The translations under genes were made by a program, and so were the position numbers. A stretch of DNA of 64,000 nucleotides, taken from a virus (lineage: Duplodnaviria; Caudoviricetes). How positions within the stretch are numbered: position 1 is the first letter of the stretch; each line of letters begins with the position of its first letter. Below are positions 2,418-64,000 of this stretch, piece after piece. The notes beneath the pieces were generated by a model. That model was not told the origin of the DNA. It ran no database searches and was given only the letters and a program-made list of their open reading frames with translations. The DNA lies in IMG/VR virus record IMGVR_UViG_3300020460_000012. The stretch is one strand, 5' to 3'.

Positions 2418-3637
2418 AAATAGGTTTTATTGGTACAGGAAAATTAGGTATGCCTTGTGCAGAAGCTATAGCAGAAAAAGGACATGATGTTAGAGGCTAC
2501 GATGTAATTAATCATCAAAGCAAAACTGTTTTAATGTGCAGTGACATTTATACTTGTGTAAATGATAGAGATATTGTGTTTATTGCAGTGCCTACTCCTC
2601 ATGATCCTGCATACGATGGTCGTAAACCAACTGCACATCTTGAACCTAAAGATTTTAGCTATGATATTGTTATACAATGTTTAAAAGAAGCTAATAAGCA
2701 TATGAATAAAGAACAATTACTTGTGCTTATTAGCACAGTATTACCTGGCACCACACGTAGAGAATTTGCACACTTAGTCACTAATACTAGATTTGTGTAC
2801 AATCCTTATTTAATTGCAATGGGAAGCGTTGCCTGGGATATGGTTAACCCGGAAATGGTAATGATAGGTACCGAAGATGGAACCAAAACAGGTGATGCAC
2901 AAGAACTTGTAGAGTTTTATGAAACTGTTATGGAAAACAATCCACGCTACGAAGTTGGTACTTGGGACGAATGCGAGTGTATTAAGGTTTTTTATAACAC
3001 TTTTATAAGTGCTAAGATAGGACTTGTAAATATGATTCAAGATGTAGCTGAAAAACAAGGTAACATAAATGTTGATGTTGTTACTAATGCTCTTGCACAT
3101 AGCGATAAGCGTATAATGGGTCCACAGTATATGACAGCTGGTATGGGAGACGGCGGCGCATGTCATCCTAGAGATAATATCGCCTTACGCTATATGGCAC
3201 AAGAACTAGGATTAGGATATGATTTGTTTGACAGCATTATGCATGCAAGAGAAATACAAGCAGAAAATCTTGCCAAACGTTTAGTTGAAGAAGCTAAGGA
3301 AACAGACTTGCCTATTTTAATTCATGGAGCGGCGTACAAACCAGATGTACCTTATCAAGATGGTAGTTATAGTCTATTAGTTGGACATTATTGTGAGCAA
3401 ATGGGATATCATCCAATTTATGTTGATCCATATACACACCCTCAAAAAGGACCATTTAAAGCTGTAGCTTTGTTGGCACACAGTAGTGATGTTACATACA
3501 AGTATATGGGTAAAAAGCACAAACAAGAATTATATTGTTACTTAGAACCAGGTAGTATAATTGTTGATCCGTGGAGAACATTTGATAAAAGACAAAACGA
3601 ATTTAAGGTAGTATACTACGGGGATACAAGAAAGTAA
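2414..3637 (+). CDS. ugd: UDP-glucose/GDP-mannose dehydrogenase family
   Basis: Rossmann GTGKLG, 'FIAVPTP', 'YNPY', catalytic-Cys motif 'GDGGACHPRD'. Confidence 0.9.
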   Translation: MKIGFIGTGKLGMPCAEAIAEKGHDVRGYDVINHQSKTVLMCSDIYTCVNDRDIVFIAVPTPHDPAYDGRKPTAHLEPKDFSYDIVIQCLKEANKHMNKEQLLVLISTVLPGTTRREFAHLVTNTRFVYNPYLIAMGSVAWDMVNPEMVMIGTEDGTKTGDAQELVEFYETVMENNPRYEVGTWDECECIKVFYNTFISAKIGLVNMIQDVAEKQGNINVDVVTNALAHSDKRIMGPQYMTAGMGDGGACHPRDNIALRYMAQELGLGYDLFDSIMHAREIQAENLAKRLVEEAKETDLPILIHGAAYKPDVPYQDGSYSLLVGHYCEQMGYHPIYVDPYTHPQKGPFKAVALLAHSSDVTYKYMGKKHKQELYCYLEPGSIIVDPWRTFDKRQNEFKVVYYGDTRK

Positions 3638-4317
3638 TGTACGACATAGTTTTTATTTCATATCAAGAGCCTAATGCAGATGAAAATTATGGTAAACTAA
3701 AAGAACGTTTTCCATTAGCAAAACGTTTACATGGTGTAAAAGGAATTCATCAAGCCCATATTGCCGCGGCAAAAAAATGTTTTACAAAAATGTTTTGGAT
3801 TGTAGACGGCGATGCAATTATAGAAAATAATTTTAATTTTGATCACGAAGTTCCTTGGCACCAGTTAGATCATGTTCATGTTTGGCGTGCAAAAAATTCA
3901 GTAAATGGATTAATATATGGATATGGAGGAGTAAAATTATTTCCTAGACAAATGACTATTGACATGGATTTATCTAAGCCAGATATGACAACAAGTATAA
4001 GTGGAAAATTTAAAGCTATACAAGAGATAGCAAACACAACTGTATTTAATACTGATCCTTTTAATACATGGAAAAGTGCTTTTAGAGAATGTTGTAAATT
4101 AAGTAGTAAAGTTATTGATAAACAAAAAGATATAGAAACAGATAAAAGATTACACACTTGGTGTACAAGAGGAAAAACAAAACCATTTGGAGAATATGCA
4201 ATACAAGGTGCCTTAGCAGGTAAGGCATACGGTGAAGAGAACAGAACTATGCCAGAAAATTTACGTAAAATTAATGACTTTGATTGGTTATTGGAGAAAT
4301 TTAATGGAAACACATGA
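3637..4317 (+). CDS. Glycosyltransferase-like protein (GT-A, DxD)
   Basis: 'FWIVDGD' DxD motif; sugar-gene context. Confidence 0.45.
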   Translation: MYDIVFISYQEPNADENYGKLKERFPLAKRLHGVKGIHQAHIAAAKKCFTKMFWIVDGDAIIENNFNFDHEVPWHQLDHVHVWRAKNSVNGLIYGYGGVKLFPRQMTIDMDLSKPDMTTSISGKFKAIQEIANTTVFNTDPFNTWKSAFRECCKLSSKVIDKQKDIETDKRLHTWCTRGKTKPFGEYAIQGALAGKAYGEENRTMPENLRKINDFDWLLEKFNGNT

Positions 4318-45357: not shown

Positions 45358-45636
45358 TTAATTTACCACAATTTGTATTAACGCAATAGTATTCATTACA
45401 ACAAACCAACTACATAAGAAAATTGTAAATGCGGCCTTTCTTATCACTGTGCTTATCAAGCCCAATATACTTCCTATTAAGTACATAGGAATAAAAATTT
45501 CAGTAGCAGGATCTAGCACTGTCCAAGTTAGCACCGCACTAGCACTTACTAAAAATAAAGTTTCAAAAAACTCACAGTAAAATGCAAACGGACTTAGCCG
45601 GTAGCTTTCCTTAAAATATCTAACGACTCCATTCAC
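45358..45636 (-). CDS. Small membrane protein
   Basis: Three hydrophobic segments. Confidence 0.55.
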   Translation of the reverse strand: MNGVVRYFKESYRLSPFAFYCEFFETLFLVSASAVLTWTVLDPATEIFIPMYLIGSILGLISTVIRKAAFTIFLCSWFVVMNTIALIQIVVN

Positions 45637-45893
45637 TTATCTTTACCCACTGTCACAACTAAAGTTTCAAGATCGTCAAAAGCGTCGGCATGTGCCGCCC
45701 AATCGCCTTTTTGTGCAATTTTGATTGCTTTGTTTATAAGAGTGGGTTTAATGTCTAATTCTTCAGCAACTGCTTTTACAGTTTCTTTTAGACCCGTGTT
45801 TAAATCTTCTATTTCTTGTAATACTGTAACACCTTCGTTCACAAGGCGTTCTAATTTGGCCTTCTCTTCAGGTCCATAAGTACGATCACTCAT
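45633..45893 (-). CDS. T4 DsbA/GapR-like dsDNA-binding protein (tentative)
   Basis: Helical 86 aa; 'EIEDL...KETVKAVAEELDIKPTLINKAIKI'. Confidence 0.5.
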   Translation of the reverse strand: MSDRTYGPEEKAKLERLVNEGVTVLQEIEDLNTGLKETVKAVAEELDIKPTLINKAIKIAQKGDWAAHADAFDDLETLVVTVGKDK

Positions 45894-45927: not shown

Positions 45928-45956
45928 ATTATACTACAATTTTATGAGGTTGTCAA
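45928..45956 (-). promoter_or_regulatory. sigma70 promoter TTGACA-17-TATAAT heading the polB operon
   Basis: Perfect consensus. Confidence 0.85.
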
Positions 45957-45959
45957 CTA

Positions 45960-46856
45960 TTATTTTGCTTTAAGTGCCGCCCAGAGTTGGGACTTGATAG
46001 ATTCTGTAGCGTAATCTTTTTTATGTTTTGTAATACCTGCTTTGGCATCTTTTTTCTTATCTTTATGCTTACCAGCGGCTCCACTTTTACGTAAAGCTTC
46101 CATATCACGCCAATTTGGATCTCTAGCTTTCATAAGTTTTGGCTTCTTTTTGCCTTCTACAAATTCTTTTATTACATCTTCAAGATAAGCTATTCTTGCT
46201 TCTAATGCTTCAATAGTACCAGTGCCTGCTTTTGCGTCTACTAATGTAAACTTTTTACCATTTACCGACATTATTTGTTTACGGCTTATAGCGTAAGTAG
46301 CACCTTTCATATTAAGTTGGATTTGTGGTTTGCCTTCACCATCAACTTTGCCTTGGATTAGGTCAACTACAGGTACATCTTTTCTAAATTGTCCTTTTGC
46401 ATTCTTATATGAAACTAGATCACCTTTAGCTAAAGTATGACCTTCTTTACTTGTTGGCCAATCACCACCTTGTGGCTTTGGTGCAGGTTCTCCTGGTTTT
46501 GGCTTTGGTGCAGGTGTAGTACCTTTTACAGGAGCAGGCTTATCTTTTGGAGCATCTAATTTAACATTAAGTGCATCTACTTTGTTATAATTTTTAAAAC
46601 CATGTTTAATAGCATCTAACGGAGTAGCTTCATTCAATTGCACTCCGGCAAGTTTAGCAAAATCGCTAACACTATAATCTTTATCTACTGGAACCGATCC
46701 TGGTTCAACTTCTACAGTTTCTGTAATTGTTTTATTTAAAACTTCATGTCCAGAGGGTGCTTCTCCTTCAGCCATCTCTCTAATTTTTCGTATATCTTCC
46801 GCAGGATCTGCAGGATCAAGTTCAAATAACTTTTGTTGGAGTGCATGATAATCCAT
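45960..46856 (-). CDS. Putative internal head (poly)protein
   Basis: Acidic linkers ending in x-x-E separate basic Lys/Pro-rich modules. Confidence 0.45.
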   Translation of the reverse strand: MDYHALQQKLFELDPADPAEDIRKIREMAEGEAPSGHEVLNKTITETVEVEPGSVPVDKDYSVSDFAKLAGVQLNEATPLDAIKHGFKNYNKVDALNVKLDAPKDKPAPVKGTTPAPKPKPGEPAPKPQGGDWPTSKEGHTLAKGDLVSYKNAKGQFRKDVPVVDLIQGKVDGEGKPQIQLNMKGATYAISRKQIMSVNGKKFTLVDAKAGTGTIEALEARIAYLEDVIKEFVEGKKKPKLMKARDPNWRDMEALRKSGAAGKHKDKKKDAKAGITKHKKDYATESIKSQLWAALKAK

Positions 46857-47335
46857 TATTTTTTTCTTTTGCCAGAAGCTTTCCCAGCATGTACAGCTTT
46901 ACGATGTGCGGCTGATTTAAACTTACCTTCTAGTTTTGCATGTAGTTGCTCTTTGTAAGTTTTTTCTTCCGGTATACTATCATCGTTGCAATTACAGTGT
47001 TTGCAGTTTGGAGGACATTCGCAGTCTTCTCTTTTTACATCACTACCGCAACACTCATCTTTGCAATGTGTATCTTTTTGTGATTCTGACATTGGGCTAT
47101 TTTCATAATCTAAATGATGATAAACAGAACCTAGCATTTCACTAGCTTTTGTAATTTTAGATTGTATCCAACCTTCAAGGCCATCAGCTTCGCTTACATT
47201 TTTAAGCATCTCGTGAAGCTTTATTGAATACTTTGCGGATTTGTAAAGCTGAGCACGGGCCATTTGCACTTCGTGATCTCTTTCAGCAATGTCTGCTAGT
47301 TCGCCTAATCCTTCTTCTATTTCTGCTTTTCTCAT
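46856..47335 (-). CDS. Putative internal head protein with an 8-Cys cluster
   Basis: 'CKDECCGSDVKREDCECPPNCKHCNC'; late promoter at 47360-47367. Confidence 0.5.
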   Translation of the reverse strand: MRKAEIEEGLGELADIAERDHEVQMARAQLYKSAKYSIKLHEMLKNVSEADGLEGWIQSKITKASEMLGSVYHHLDYENSPMSESQKDTHCKDECCGSDVKREDCECPPNCKHCNCNDDSIPEEKTYKEQLHAKLEGKFKSAAHRKAVHAGKASGKRKK

Positions 47336-47362
47336 TTTAGGTTCCCGTTGTTCTATACGTAT

Positions 47363-47581
47363 TTATCGTTTTATAGCCTTGCCGCCCATTACGTTGGCCT
47401 TGAGATCTAGTGCATTTTTAGCTGTGCCGTCTGAATTTGTAGCTTGCGGTGCTTCAGGTGCTCCATACTTGCCTTTTTTCTTTACTTTGCGTTTTGCTCC
47501 AGGCACACTTGCAATGGTTGCAATACTACCCGCGACGGTTACACCAGATTCACTAGTTTCTAATATTTCTTTAATTTTCAT
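47363..47581 (-). CDS. Small putative internal head protein
   Basis: N-terminus MKIKEILETSE resembles the T4 capsid-targeting sequence; basic body. Confidence 0.5.
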   Translation of the reverse strand: MKIKEILETSESGVTVAGSIATIASVPGAKRKVKKKGKYGAPEAPQATNSDGTAKNALDLKANVMGGKAIKR

Positions 47582-47662
47582 TTAGCACCCGCAATCAGAA
47601 CCTGCACAAGTGCAGGGTGAGCAAGTACAATTTTCGCATTTGCAATTTGGATTTGCACACAT
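47582..47662 (-). CDS. 26-aa metallothionein-like peptide (not in ORF track)
   Basis: MCANPNCKCENCTCSPCTCAGSDCGC: 9 Cys, four CxC pairs; AAGGAG SD; stop abuts next ATG. Confidence 0.85.
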   Translation of the reverse strand: MCANPNCKCENCTCSPCTCAGSDCGC

Positions 47663-47681
47663 AATAAATCTCCTTATAATA

Positions 47682-47689
47682 TATTTATC
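47682..47689 (-). promoter_or_regulatory. Late promoter GATAAATA upstream of the metallothionein-like gene
   Basis: Matches the recurring DATAAATA motif. Confidence 0.6.
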
Positions 47690-47693
47690 CTAA

Positions 47694-47984
47694 TTATTTT
47701 CTTTTGCCACGAAATCTTCTTACGTGTCCTTCGTAAAAAATCATGGTATACCAAGGTGCATTTCTAGGCATTTTTCTTGTATATTCCCACGCCACATTGT
47801 TTTTATCAATCCATACTACATGATAACCTGCCCACCTACGAGAAGGATACCATTCTGTACTGCCGCCTTTTGTAATGAGTTGTTCGAGGGTCCAATGATA
47901 ACAATTATTTTTTTTAGTAAAAAACCTTACAGGCCAAAACCAAAAAAAGATAGCTATGATTAAGCCTGTATTAACCAATTTCAT
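47694..47984 (-). CDS. Hypothetical protein with N-terminal TM segment
   Basis: Aromatic-rich ORF. Confidence 0.5.
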   Translation of the reverse strand: MKLVNTGLIIAIFFWFWPVRFFTKKNNCYHWTLEQLITKGGSTEWYPSRRWAGYHVVWIDKNNVAWEYTRKMPRNAPWYTMIFYEGHVRRFRGKRK

Positions 47985-47995
47985 GTAAGTAATTA

Positions 47996-50281
47996 TTATT
48001 TTTTAGAGCGACCGCTTTTCATATTGGCGCACCAATGATACATAGCACGTTTTTCGCCTGAGGAATTTTTGGCTCTTTTACGTAAATCAGTGACAGAACC
48101 TTTACAACTTGCACCTGAACGTTTCACACGTCCTGGTCTGCTTTTGCCTTTTTTCTTACCATCTGCAAAATTTTCGGTTGCAGGTTCTTTGATTTTTTGT
48201 TTTATTTCTTTTGCTGTCCTTTGGAACTTGTAATCTTTGTATTTAAAACCTATACCACCAGCGTTTTCCCAGGACTCTATATTTTTGCCAAAGTCATCTA
48301 TTAGTATATTAGGTGTGCCGTCTTTTTGTGTTGCAAATTGTGCTTTGTTATGTGTTACAAAAACATTTTTTGGCGGAAAAAAACTTAAATTATTTTTAAT
48401 CCATTCACGTTTGTGTGGTTCGCTACGTGGATCATCTGCTAGTGGACTGGTACATATACTATAACTACCTTTTACTTGTTTTATTAATCCTAATAGCTCT
48501 TTTGCTTTAGGAAGTAATGGTAAATTTAACCAAAAGTCATCTATATCTTTGATATCACCTATTGCTTGTGCAGGATCTTTTATATCTTTCCAATTATCAA
48601 CGCCTTGTGACTTTGACCATTCACCGAAAAAGTCAGCAAGTACACCATCCATGTCTACATAAATTTCAGAGTTTTTTTTTATTTCGCCTAAAGCTTCCCT
48701 AAGACTTTCATCTACGTGACCGTCATCACCGTGCTTATCTGCGTCTTGTGTTTTATAACCTATACGATTTAAATGCTTTTTTAAATGTTTCTTTTCTTTT
48801 TCTCCACCAAAAGGAACAACCATTACATCTGGTTCATCTCTGTTTGCTCCTTTTTTTACACTCTTGATATTAGCAACATGCTTTCCTATACGAAGAAAGT
48901 CATAAGCAGTATCTGCTTTTGTAAGAAAAGTATTCTTTGGATTCTTAAAATGATCTGCTTCAAATATTTCTAGTATTTTTTCTAGTGTAAAAGGTAATCT
49001 AGCAACATCTGCTTCTTTAATTCCTAACATTTGTAGTGCAGTATATCTATGATGTCCGTTTACTATTCTATTTTTACTATCTATAATAATAGGATTATAG
49101 TCGCCTGCAACAATATTGTCAACTTGTTTTTTAAAATTTTCTAGTATACGTTCCTCTTGTACAGGAATAAGCTTTTTTATATCTATAGTTTCAAGACTAT
49201 GTTTGATATTTTCAAGTTGCTTGTTTTTAATTTGCGGTAGTTCGTTTCTAGTGTAATTTGATTTAAGTTTACGTTTTTTTTTAGGTTTCTTATCTAATGA
49301 AAGTTTTTTAACATTCATATATTCACCACCAACAGGAACATCCTTTGTAGCATTTTGTTTTGTTACAATGCCAACACCGTATTCTTTAACTTTGTTTTTT
49401 ACATTTTTAGCTTTACCGCGTCTATCTGGATTAGGATCTTTTTTCCTTTTGCGTTTAACAGCATTTGCTATAGCTTTTTTGCCACCACTTGATCTTAGAC
49501 TTGCGGCTTTTGACTTACTTAAACACTTTGGCTTGCCCTCACCAGGTTTAGAATCACCACACTTACCTATACGCTCACCTTTAGTGTTATATCTATCCCA
49601 GCCGCCACCACCTGCACCGCCTTTTTTACCTTTACCAAACCATGCACGTAGATCTTCCTTTACGAGATATCCAGTATCGTCTACATAATGTCCTGGAGGT
49701 ATGGGTTTACATTGCTTACTATCGTTACAGTAGTATTCACCGTCTTTACATTGTTCAGAGTTTTTTTTTATTTCGCCTGTTGTGCCTTCGAACATTTGGT
49801 CATTCATATCTAGCCATTGCATCAAAGGATAAAGTGTATTGACTACTAAATTAGCAAAAGCTGCCGCACCCATATGATCATTGCTATGCTGTAAATCGGG
49901 TTTGTAAATTCTTTCCATTTTTTTAGCTTCGCCCCGTAAAGCCATTACATCTTTTAAAATAGGTTTTAATTTGTCAGGAGCACCTGCAGGAAATCCGCCT
50001 AATTTGTTTTCCATCCAAGTATATACGTCATATACATCGTTTACATATTCATTTGGTAGATTGCCTTTGTATTCTTGTTGCCCTCTTTCAAGCTGTTTTC
50101 CTTTACCTCTAAGTTGGGCAAGTACTTCTATAGCATCTCTTGTGCTACTAATACTAGCTTCTTCAAGGTCTGCTTCATTTTTTACACAATTAGGCACACG
50201 TTTTCCGAACATAGTTTTCATGCCCTTCTTTTTGTAGCCCTTCCAGCAACGTGTTCCTTCTTTGAAATCACTGTATCTCAT
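47996..50281 (-). CDS. Modular polyprotein: basic Cys/Trp mini-domains + ParB-like domain + HAD 5'(3')-deoxyribonucleotidase domain
   Basis: 'PIIIDSKNRIVNGHHRYTA' (ParB/Srx-like); 'IYVDMDGVLADF', 'LIDDFGKN' (HAD); modules bounded by hydrophobic-x-E sites. Confidence 0.7.
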   Translation of the reverse strand: MRYSDFKEGTRCWKGYKKKGMKTMFGKRVPNCVKNEADLEEASISSTRDAIEVLAQLRGKGKQLERGQQEYKGNLPNEYVNDVYDVYTWMENKLGGFPAGAPDKLKPILKDVMALRGEAKKMERIYKPDLQHSNDHMGAAAFANLVVNTLYPLMQWLDMNDQMFEGTTGEIKKNSEQCKDGEYYCNDSKQCKPIPPGHYVDDTGYLVKEDLRAWFGKGKKGGAGGGGWDRYNTKGERIGKCGDSKPGEGKPKCLSKSKAASLRSSGGKKAIANAVKRKRKKDPNPDRRGKAKNVKNKVKEYGVGIVTKQNATKDVPVGGEYMNVKKLSLDKKPKKKRKLKSNYTRNELPQIKNKQLENIKHSLETIDIKKLIPVQEERILENFKKQVDNIVAGDYNPIIIDSKNRIVNGHHRYTALQMLGIKEADVARLPFTLEKILEIFEADHFKNPKNTFLTKADTAYDFLRIGKHVANIKSVKKGANRDEPDVMVVPFGGEKEKKHLKKHLNRIGYKTQDADKHGDDGHVDESLREALGEIKKNSEIYVDMDGVLADFFGEWSKSQGVDNWKDIKDPAQAIGDIKDIDDFWLNLPLLPKAKELLGLIKQVKGSYSICTSPLADDPRSEPHKREWIKNNLSFFPPKNVFVTHNKAQFATQKDGTPNILIDDFGKNIESWENAGGIGFKYKDYKFQRTAKEIKQKIKEPATENFADGKKKGKSRPGRVKRSGASCKGSVTDLRKRAKNSSGEKRAMYHWCANMKSGRSKK

Positions 50282-62566: not shown

Positions 62567-62736
62567 CTAATCATCCTTTGTTGTATTTCTCTATAATTCA
62601 TGCTAACATTAGGCCTTAAACTCTGCATGAAGATATCTTGATTTCTCATAGTTTGCATAGACCAGTCTTGTGCCGACCTTTCTGGCAAATTACTACAGCC
62701 AGTTAATAAAATACATGTAAGTATTAGTCTTTTCAT
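62563..62736 (-). CDS. 57-aa lipoprotein (not in ORF track)
   Basis: MKRLILTCILLTGC lipobox; ATGA overlaps on both sides. Confidence 0.65.
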   Translation of the reverse strand: MKRLILTCILLTGCSNLPERSAQDWSMQTMRNQDIFMQSLRPNVSMNYREIQQRMIR

Positions 62737-64000
62737 TTTTCTGCTAACATCCTTTGAGCTTTTAGCTCATTGTATCCTTCCTCATCTAAGTGTGTAATTG
62801 CAAGCCAGGCATGAGTCATTTCATCTCCTGTCCTACTACCACCCATTACCCACATGTCAGGATCAGGATTGTTTGGGTTATTTGCGGTATTGTCATACCA
62901 CTGCTTCAATATAATAACTGCACCTGCAGGTATTAATGGGGCTACATGTGGTTCAAATAAATGACTGTGATGCCATGTTGCACTCCAATTAGATATTTGA
63001 CTCACAGGTTCTGTACGACCAGTTTCTGGATAAAATATTTCTAAACTAGCCGCATTCATTCTCAAATGTCCATGTGGTTGAAAGCTATCTAAACGCACAG
63101 GATGATCAAAACTGTGGAAACCTTGTGTCATATGATAGCCATGTGGAGGAATAACGATATCGTCTTGATTGCCTAGCCGATATAAACTTAAATCTTGTTT
63201 GTATTTCAGTTCTTGGCTTTCCTCTTCGCTGTATAACCAAAGTCCAATTTCCACCACGTTGTCTTTGATAACTGTACCTGGAGCCATTGTTCCTAAACCG
63301 CCAGGAAACATATGTATGTCCCAACGAACTTGTGAATTTGCAGGAAGTGTTCTGCAAACTCCTTCCGGGACAATCTCTCCCCACTTTCCCATAGCGTATT
63401 CCGTAAGCATACCTTCACGACCTCCATCAATAACTACATTAGAATTAGCATGATGAACTACAGACTTTGCATCGCCTCTAGGTTTTACTTGCACTGCTTT
63501 AATACATCTGTCTTCTGTGAGTCCTGTTGGTACTAGATGCTTGTGCCACAGATCGTTACCACTTGCTGGAATATCTATAGGAACGCTAGGAATTATTAGA
63601 TTCGGTGGACCAAAGTCTCCAGCAAAATTCCATTGGTCTGGATCAGCAAGATTAGGAGGTTGTACGACTATGTCGGTATCTCCGTATTGGGAGCCTGAGT
63701 CTACCCAAGCTACTATTGTATCTATTTCTTTTTGTGACAGTCGCCAATCACCTTGTAGGTCTTGTATGCCTATTCCGTGGTCGTAAGCATACGGAGGCAT
63801 TTCTCTACTAGCTACTTTCATTTTAATTAATGGTGCCCAAGGACGAACTTGTTCGTAGCCCTCAAAACTCATAGGGCCTATACCGCCTGGTCTATGACAT
63901 ATTAAGCAATTATTATTGATTATCTTTGCTACATCATCTGTGTAAGTTTGTGCATGCACTCCAGATGTAAAATACATCAAGCCCATAAGCACAAGTAGGT
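62733..64000 (-). CDS. Secreted cytochrome c + copper-dependent monooxygenase (PHM/DBH-like) fusion; 5' end cut by window edge
   Basis: Signal peptide (..VHA|Q), heme motif CLICH..MPP, Cu ligands HH (VVHHAN), H (DIHM), HxH (PHGH), M (DEMT). Confidence 0.8.
   Translation of the reverse strand, partial: LLVLMGLMYFTSGVHAQTYTDDVAKIINNNCLICHRPGGIGPMSFEGYEQVRPWAPLIKMKVASREMPPYAYDHGIGIQDLQGDWRLSQKEIDTIVAWVDSGSQYGDTDIVVQPPNLADPDQWNFAGDFGPPNLIIPSVPIDIPASGNDLWHKHLVPTGLTEDRCIKAVQVKPRGDAKSVVHHANSNVVIDGGREGMLTEYAMGKWGEIVPEGVCRTLPANSQVRWDIHMFPGGLGTMAPGTVIKDNVVEIGLWLYSEEESQELKYKQDLSLYRLGNQDDIVIPPHGYHMTQGFHSFDHPVRLDSFQPHGHLRMNAASLEIFYPETGRTEPVSQISNWSATWHHSHLFEPHVAPLIPAGAVIILKQWYDNTANNPNNPDPDMWVMGGSRTGDEMTHAWLAITHLDEEGYNELKAQRMLAEK

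Follow-up and report, generated by a model that had tools for sequence, protein, structure and literature searches.

Whether an open reading frame (ORF) of 26 codons, nine of them for cysteine, is a gene at all and, if so, what a phage would gain from its product is the question raised by this locus. The window, that is, the whole stretch of 64,000 nucleotides that was analysed (IMG/VR record IMGVR_UViG_3300020460_000012), has a G+C content of 34%. Because the off-frames of such AT-rich DNA also yield cysteine-rich stretches by chance, cysteine density alone is no proof of a gene, and this ORF was missed by gene callers. On re-reading the window, what the earlier note had said of the sequence itself was correct throughout: the peptide (P0001; MCANPNCKCENCTCSPCTCAGSDCGC) has 26 residues, nine of them cysteines, with four CxC pairs, no aromatic residue and no histidine, and it is preceded by an AAGGAG Shine-Dalgarno (SD) sequence (Table 1). 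The same note placed the gene among internal head proteins and proposed that the peptide is packaged in the virion. Both statements have to be regarded as guesses, because Pfam and PHROGs searches gave the neighbouring genes no structural annotation and the peptide has no leader.

Table 1. Features of the locus, in window coordinates
Feature	Position	Strand	Remarks
Nine-Cys peptide ORF (P0001), 26 codons + stop	47582..47662	minus	ATG to TAA; codons 47662..47585, TAA 47584..47582
Shine-Dalgarno AAGGAG	47670..47675	minus	7 nt 5' of peptide ATG
GATAAATA, T4-type late-promoter-like motif	47682..47689	minus	19 nt 5' of peptide ATG
72-aa gene	47363..47581	minus	ATG abuts peptide stop (TAA, ATG)
96-aa upstream gene	47694..47984	minus	stop 31 nt 5' of peptide ATG
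Second GATAAATA motif	47360..47367	minus	24 nt 5' of 159-aa gene
159-aa gene, same gene run	46856..47335	minus	own conserved nine-Cys motif
Cassette (SD + ORF + stop), 95 nt	47582..47676	minus	approximate extent; junctions ambiguous by a few bases

A cassette behind a shared promoter-like motif

Comparison with sister phages delimits the piece of DNA that carries the ORF. In the sister contigs L002-L005 and L007-L010, which have no peptide ORF, TAAGGATAAATATTATT separates the stop codon of the 96-aa gene from the ATG of the 72-aa gene; in the window and in L001, L006 and L016, a 95-nt piece lies between GGATAAATAT and that ATG. Most close relatives of this phage lack the peptide gene, which is thus dispensable. 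Since GATAAATA sits directly before the 72-aa gene in the sister phages, the motif predates the peptide gene and would serve the whole operon; the gene had been credited with a late promoter of its own, but this motif is common to phages that lack the gene.

In phage T4, late promoters consist of a TATAAATA-like -10 element, without a -35 element, located shortly before late genes. The window contains 12 copies of the ATAAATA motif where 44.7±6.5 would be expected (an approximately fourfold depletion), with 11 of the 12 copies on the gene-rich minus strand and nine located 5-35 nt before an ORF start. The motif looks functional, and its distribution fits a T4-type late promoter that is avoided elsewhere. 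By analogy, GATAAATA points to putative late transcription of the operon. Contigs from marine metatranscriptome libraries span 47528-47691, which includes the whole ORF, and 47670-47833, at a depth of 2-3 with DNA carry-over possible, and run through the GATAAATA motif; they would agree with read-through transcription from the 96-aa gene, and the gaps in the RNA-library coverage within 46800-48100 are uninformative either way. The 72-aa gene has lost its own SD-like sequence here and, having no good SD, is probably translationally coupled to the peptide.

Other small cysteine-rich genes are found at the same site. A second family of Cys/His-rich ORFs (38-42 aa; CKSCGHxCHC...CxxCxNDVCxxCxC) is represented at L021:3615-3740, in L032/L033 near 3626-3766, at L047:2496-2609 and at L052:2676-2792, in L021 and L032/L033 in the same slot, directly before the homologue of the 72-aa gene, so that this slot seems to collect small Cys-rich genes. 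For the L021 and L047 members, no Pfam match was found. The 159-aa neighbour has a motif of its own, DTHCSDKCCG..EDCxCPPxCKHCNCN, with relatives in about 400 IMG/VR stretches; a relationship of this gene to the peptide family was rejected (hhalign probability 1.8%). The wider region also contains two perfect sigma-70 consensus promoters (TTGACA-17-TATAAT), both on the minus strand, at 49094-49122 and 45928-45956, one inside a 761-aa ORF and the other just before an 86-aa gene (45633-45893) that matches the phage transcriptional-regulator family PHROG 639.

The ORF is a gene under purifying selection

Syntenic IMG/VR contigs were reached via the 96-aa and 159-aa neighbour genes, with no use of the cysteine pattern. 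Two relatives found in this way, L006/L122 and L016/L107, carry the peptide ORF in altered sequence, with 7 and 9.5 synonymous and 3 and 5.5 non-synonymous differences from the window ORF, respectively, giving pN/pS values of 0.10 and 0.13. Every cysteine is retained in both, many of the differences being TGC/TGT switches. For five distinct 26-aa variants, pN/pS values range from 0.06 to 0.24, and the 34-nt promoter/SD spacer shows a one-base difference among the relatives compared. The ORF is a real gene under purifying selection, and conservation, on which the earlier note had made its reading depend, decides the point, being evident both here and in the family of 91 clusters described below.

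The possibility that the ORF gives no stable product and is only passenger sequence would agree with its being overlooked by gene callers, with its absence from most close relatives and with the weak RNA support, but it is at odds with the selection at the protein level, the conserved SD and the more than 150 loci in at least eight neighbourhoods reported below. We consider it extremely improbable.

A second alternative concerns regulation. Ribosomes pausing on the cysteine codons might sense the cysteine supply and thereby control how much of the coupled 72-aa operon is translated, in the manner of the mycobacterial polycysteine leader ORFs (10.1101/834739). This would account for nine Cys codons before a stop that abuts the next ATG, itself without a good SD, and for a hairpin in the 3' half of the ORF, just before the ATG of the 72-aa gene. 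The Cys codons are, however, spaced rather than consecutive, and the residues between them are under purifying selection (pN/pS ~0.1); the downstream genes vary by locus and are unrelated to cysteine metabolism, and some family members precede an opposite-strand gene or a terminator-like hairpin. The arms of the hairpin are not conserved in L107 and L122, and the local RNA fold around the ORF is unremarkable, with a z-score of only -1.6. Given the spaced cysteines, the conserved residues between them and the unrelated downstream genes, the class of polycysteine leader attenuators (10.1101/834739) was rejected, and we hold a leader function to be very unlikely. A scan flagged a terminator-like hairpin inside the ORF, but this was discarded for lack of conservation in relatives.

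A large unnamed family of nine-cysteine mini-proteins

The earlier note had proposed a search of viral metagenomes for relatives, and this search was productive: a degenerate scan of IMG/VR for CKCENCTC gave 51 loci, a scan for NCTCDPC gave at least 119 stretches, and the family totals more than 150 IMG/VR loci. A profile built from phage sequences only (A1) retrieved 91 cluster representatives, with clusters defined at 50% identity, at E≤1e-3 among 1.84 billion proteins. The 26-residue gene of the window belongs to a large unnamed family of nine-Cys mini-proteins in marine T4-like phages. Most members are 26-40 aa long, and nearly all have a GGAG/AGGA-type SD at the same distance as in the window.

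The family consensus is MCxNExCKCENCTCDPCECTxxNxCGC, in which N4, C7, C12, C14, C17 and C19 are invariant and C2, P16, C25 and C27 nearly so. Members consist of 28.5% Cys, 15% Glu and 11% Asn, with 0.5% aromatic residues (F+Y+W) and 1.2% His. The number of cysteines is kept more strictly than their exact places. Exactly nine are present in 133 of the 161 distinct sequences, and 104 of these 133 have the canonical pattern; in 18 others the third Cys is lost and a CC doublet gained near the C-terminus, and in 10 the first Cys is lost and a CC doublet gained at the N-terminus. Such retention of the number fits what would be a cluster of fixed stoichiometry, and not a protein-protein interface or a mere run of cysteine codons.

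Searches with Pfam, NCBIfam, PHROGs and PDB sequences gave no significant match, and neither the ten family representatives looked up (one of them labelled 'hypothetical protein') nor three bacterial relatives carry a functional name. Our literature search found no description of the nine-Cys family; in the literature searched, viral metallothioneins are mentioned only in passing, in surveys of soil and fumarole viromes. Against cultured phages, tblastn with P0001 and two longer members returned nothing or one chance match, in a search whose low-complexity filter probably masks the queries and which leaves absence unproven, and blastn with the gene and its flanks gave chance matches only. Cyanophage P-RSM6, which shares the giant structural gene found beside one branch of the family, was examined as a carrier, yet it has no family member.

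A metagenomic protein of 213 aa, P0002, contains six tandem QCxCDPCTCDPCLC units followed by a hydrophobic C-terminal segment, and is a repeated, possibly membrane-anchored version of the family motif.

Comparison with known metallothioneins

By sequence, the family has all the features by which metallothioneins are operationally recognised: a size below 10 kDa, a high cysteine content in CxC, CxxC and CC arrangement (9 of 26 residues in P0001), and scarcity of aromatic residues and histidine. Metal binding is predicted for it. AlphaFold with the family alignment gave a model with pLDDT 77, no strand and only a four-residue C-terminal helix, and a fold search with this model (Foldseek, VIA-align) found nothing in the PDB and only unnamed clusters in the Atlas. 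The look-alikes that appeared below threshold in the PDB, Pfam and the Atlas were metallothioneins only, namely, PF12749 for a Gordonia relative (E 4.4), 1QJL as the sole PDB sequence match, for a bacterial relative (E 3.1), and a PF02067 cluster in the Atlas (feature score 0.79). Membership in the eukaryotic metallothionein families (PF00131, PF12749, PF02067 and others) was rejected, these sub-threshold echoes being all that was seen.

The closest likeness in size and layout is to the nine-Cys beta-domain of animal metallothioneins (sea-urchin MTA beta, PDB 1QJL), which likewise has about 26-30 residues, nine cysteines in CxC and CxxC arrangement, no aromatic residues and no regular secondary structure. 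There is, however, no significant sequence or fold match between the two, and the phage protein differs in being a free-standing, acidic single domain in which one Asn is invariant and one Pro conserved; it probably arose independently of the animal domain.

The cyanobacterial-type metallothionein SmtA is a protein of about 55 aa with aromatic residues, a Zn4Cys9His2 cluster and a zinc-finger-like fold. The nine-Cys family is almost devoid of histidine and aromatic residues, and P0001 and nine relatives had no match to the SmtA/BmtA family PF02069 at E≤10; P0001 itself has neither kind of residue and its model contains no strand, so that the SmtA/BmtA type of fold was rejected and the distinction from this His-containing type, drawn in the earlier note, is borne out. 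One point of likeness is regulatory: SmtA/BmtA is a small Cys-rich metal store under the control of the ArsR/SmtB-family repressor SmtB, and bacterial members of the nine-Cys family share operons with ArsR/SmtB-family genes.

MymT of Mycobacterium tuberculosis is a Cu(I) metallothionein of the RicR regulon, controlled by a CsoR-family repressor; it is about twice as long as the phage peptide and contains His. Motif-level bacterial relatives of the phage family are located directly before CsoR-family genes whose best model is RicR. Sequence similarity to MymT was, in contrast, undetectable, the phage profile gives the CsoR-linked relatives no significant score, and the NCBIfam and Pfam searches returned no MymT-type match, with the reservation that either library may or may not contain a MymT model. 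The fungal Cu-thionein of Neurospora crassa has about 25 aa with seven Cys and no His, and folds around a single Cu(I)-thiolate cluster. Compared by description only, as in the earlier note, it falls in the same size class as the phage peptide and is likewise CxC-rich and free of histidine, but it differs in having seven rather than nine cysteines and another spacing, and no profile match connects the two.

A RiPP precursor of the SCIFF/ranthipeptide kind was also considered and rejected: the peptide begins with Met-Cys, has no leader, and the annotated recurrent phage neighbours include no radical-SAM enzyme.

Bacterial relatives adjoin genes for metal sensors

We scanned one genome per prokaryotic species for small Cys-rich ORFs with the same N-terminal motif and scored the candidates with the phage-only profile at the scale of 1.84 billion proteins. 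Clostridial-type members were significant: L187 (42 bits, 7e-6), L188 (1.7e-5), L155 (1.6e-4) and L148 (4e-3). In L187, L148 and L155, the mini-protein gene overlaps or directly follows an ArsR/SmtB-family gene (PF01022), the overlap being 7 nt in L187, and this partner has the thiolate metal-site motif ELCACD and a Cys-rich tail. These ArsR-linked members all come from one bacterial lineage. The C-terminal tail of the ArsR-type partner reads CxCGxDCSCxHC. In L187, L148 and L188, the mini-protein gene also lies near a radical-SAM gene, which in L188 sits beside a SCIFF precursor gene; this proximity probably reflects synteny, not function.

A second set of relatives was picked by an 8-residue pattern; with the phage profile they reach only 21-32 bits (21-25 bits for those linked to CsoR or ATPase genes), short of significance. 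Such a motif-level relative is located directly upstream of a CsoR-family repressor (best NCBIfam model RicR; Cys...His-x3-Cys ligand pattern) in one proteobacterial MAG and 11 loci of Gastranaerophilales, and in Mycobacterium sp. 48b, one is flanked by genes for a P1B heavy-metal/Cu ATPase and a CtaG-like protein. Convergence instead of homology is possible for these CsoR- and ATPase-linked look-alikes; the significant clostridial-type group counts for the family and the CsoR/ATPase group only for the look-alikes, for which homology may go either way.

Altogether, sensors of thiophilic metals recur beside family members or look-alikes in at least three bacterial lineages, and no metal sensor or transporter was found beside the phage copies. 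Because bacterial relatives occupy operons with metal-sensing repressors, metal binding as a miniature metallothionein is the most likely function. The link to soft-metal homeostasis that the earlier note had drawn from the peptide thus gains independent support from the ArsR/SmtB, CsoR/RicR and P1B-ATPase genes next to bacterial relatives. As to the metal, CsoR/RicR and P1B-ATPase genes beside the look-alikes would suggest Cu(I), and an ArsR-type sensor with an ELCACD site would suggest soft ligand chemistry of the Cd, Zn or As type.

The same neighbourhoods bear on a different reading of the peptide, as a zinc-stabilised mini-protein whose task is to bind a macromolecule, perhaps as an inhibitor or regulator of some protein of the host or the phage, and in which the metal would be structural only. 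Many small phage proteins are inhibitors, the non-Cys residues N4, K8, E10, N11, T13, D15 and P16 are strongly conserved, and the AlphaFold model, at pLDDT 77, is defined, if non-helical. With nine cysteines in 26 residues, however, such a protein would have hardly any surface beyond the cluster; it is the count of cysteines rather than their exact places that is conserved, which fits a cluster over an interface; the bacterial operon partners are metal sensors; and the sequence is kept across phages with very different neighbours. We give this reading a low probability.

Phage copies and Fe-S assembly genes

The phage copies reside in at least eight different neighbourhoods of marine T4-like myoviruses. 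Among the adjacent genes are Hsp20 and, after it, an M15 endolysin, as well as a cytidylyltransferase with an SNase-type nuclease behind it; others encode baseplate-wedge and neck proteins, ribonucleotide reductase, or a giant virion protein resembling one of Prochlorococcus phage P-RSM6. Given this diversity of settings, the nine-Cys gene acts like a small mobile cassette.

One kind of neighbour recurs. Of 150 phage loci, 42 have an IscU-like gene (PF01592, 177 bits) no more than 3.5 kb from the nine-Cys gene, 35 of them no more than 1.5 kb from it, and 25 have IscA-like genes (PF01521) within 3.5 kb. The gene orders include IscA-IscU-[nine-Cys gene] with a 50-nt gap, cytidylyltransferase-[nine-Cys gene]-nuclease-IscU, and an arrangement in which IscU follows about 1.4 kb downstream with three ORFs between. 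IscU and A-type carriers are known auxiliary genes of T4-like marine phages, according to the available part of PMC5332604 (Nishimura et al. 2017), and that part mentions no small Cys-rich partner gene. The IscU link holds in one direction only: when the 80 viral loci whose IscU is closest to that of this phage were examined, no family member turned up within 4 kb, by a pipeline that retrieved 85 of 99 positive controls. The window's own phage encodes IscU and IscA on the same contig as the nine-Cys gene, at distances of 84 kb and 46 kb, respectively. A connection to Fe-S biochemistry, which the earlier note had suggested for this phage, accordingly draws its support from phage relatives with adjacent IscU/IscA genes, not from the window's own phage.

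Some further observations concern this phage and its assembly. In its own assembly (G000), the phage contig C57 was binned with a genome of 2.36 Mb in 82 contigs that was scored as 89% complete. The sole IscU-type gene of the bin is on the phage contig (C57:40946-41317), which also carries an IscA-type gene (C57:78439-78741), a second IscA-type gene being on C59. The ORF at 62733-63992 of the window (minus strand) has a weak, sub-cut-off cytochrome c Pfam match (E 0.0012) and no copper-monooxygenase domain at E≤0.01.

The recurrence of IscU and IscA raises the alternative that the peptide binds Fe or Fe-S as an accessory of the phage ISC machinery, as a minimal Fe/S carrier, iron donor or electron carrier, rather than serving as a sink for toxic metals. 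In many phage loci the gene immediately follows IscA-IscU or precedes IscU by a few genes. Both proteins are encoded by the window's phage as well, and marine T4-like phages with IscU and A-type carriers carry many Fe-S enzymes (PMC5332604). The nine-Cys gene is found in the same kind of phage and in the same gene islands as these Fe-S assembly auxiliary genes, often as an immediate neighbour, but it is not a known type of ISC component. Moreover, the arrangement CxCxxCxCxxCxC is unlike any known ferredoxin, rubredoxin or Fe-S carrier motif; the bacterial members pair with thiophilic-metal sensors of the ArsR/SmtB and CsoR types, not with Fe-S genes; and most loci have no ISC gene nearby, in keeping with the reciprocal result of none in 80. 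We regard an Fe-S accessory as improbable.

A putative thionein of marine phages

The reading we favour, and consider fairly probable from the sequences and their genomic settings, is that of a cytoplasmic metal-thiolate mini-protein (thionein) that would buffer soft metals. Its nine Cys thiolates would fold around soft metal ions into one metal-thiolate cluster. If the nine-Cys beta-domain of animal metallothioneins is a guide, such a cluster would take up about three Zn(II)/Cd(II) ions, or between four and six of Cu(I). The putative thionein gene would be expressed as the first cistron behind the T4-type late-promoter-like motif, from a strong SD and probably coupled to the next gene, and the peptide would act in the infected cell as a buffer or sequestering agent for thiophilic metals (Cu, Zn, Cd). 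What the sequences establish is the gene, its selection, its family with the fixed number of nine Cys and its genomic links; we infer the metal binding with its stoichiometry, which metal is bound, when the gene is expressed and how the phage would profit.

Among the established targets of Cu and Zn toxicity are Fe-S dehydratases and the proteins of Fe-S assembly. The adjacency of IscU and IscA to phage copies suggests what such a metal sink may protect, that is, metal-sensitive steps such as Fe-S cluster assembly and Fe-S enzymes. Of the metallothionein interpretation in the earlier note, the part that stands has been strengthened by a real, selected gene with every sequence feature of the class, and has been widened from one ORF to a widespread family; the promoter of its own has fallen away, and the setting among head proteins and packaging in the virion have found no support. 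The best-supported description is that of a candidate new metallothionein-like family, which phages would use as a dispensable accessory gene.

A broader proposal can be advanced tentatively, as possible although doubtful: the phage genes might represent an unrecognised auxiliary class, a nine-Cys thionein that many marine T4-like phages carry as a guard or partner of their IscU/IscA and that holds Cu, Zn or Cd off Fe-S cluster assembly during infection, and the bacterial genes a new, widespread type of metallothionein under ArsR/SmtB control. To our knowledge, bacterial metallothioneins are barely known beyond SmtA/BmtA, MymT and the Pseudomonas MTs. If the guarding role were true, viral infection would be tied to the cycling of trace metals in the ocean.

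These findings bring out a compact family of 26-40 residues, easy to synthesise, that is common in ocean viral metagenomes and has been missed by gene callers and by all curated profiles, and they indicate that ORFs of fewer than 30 codons may rank among the better conserved genes of a phage. If the peptide binds metal, it would constitute a trace-metal auxiliary gene in marine phages, in waters whose Zn, Cd and Cu are limiting for plankton or toxic to it; its binding would offer a reason for travelling with phage Fe-S assembly genes, and its bacterial relatives would form a new metallothionein family with clear regulators.
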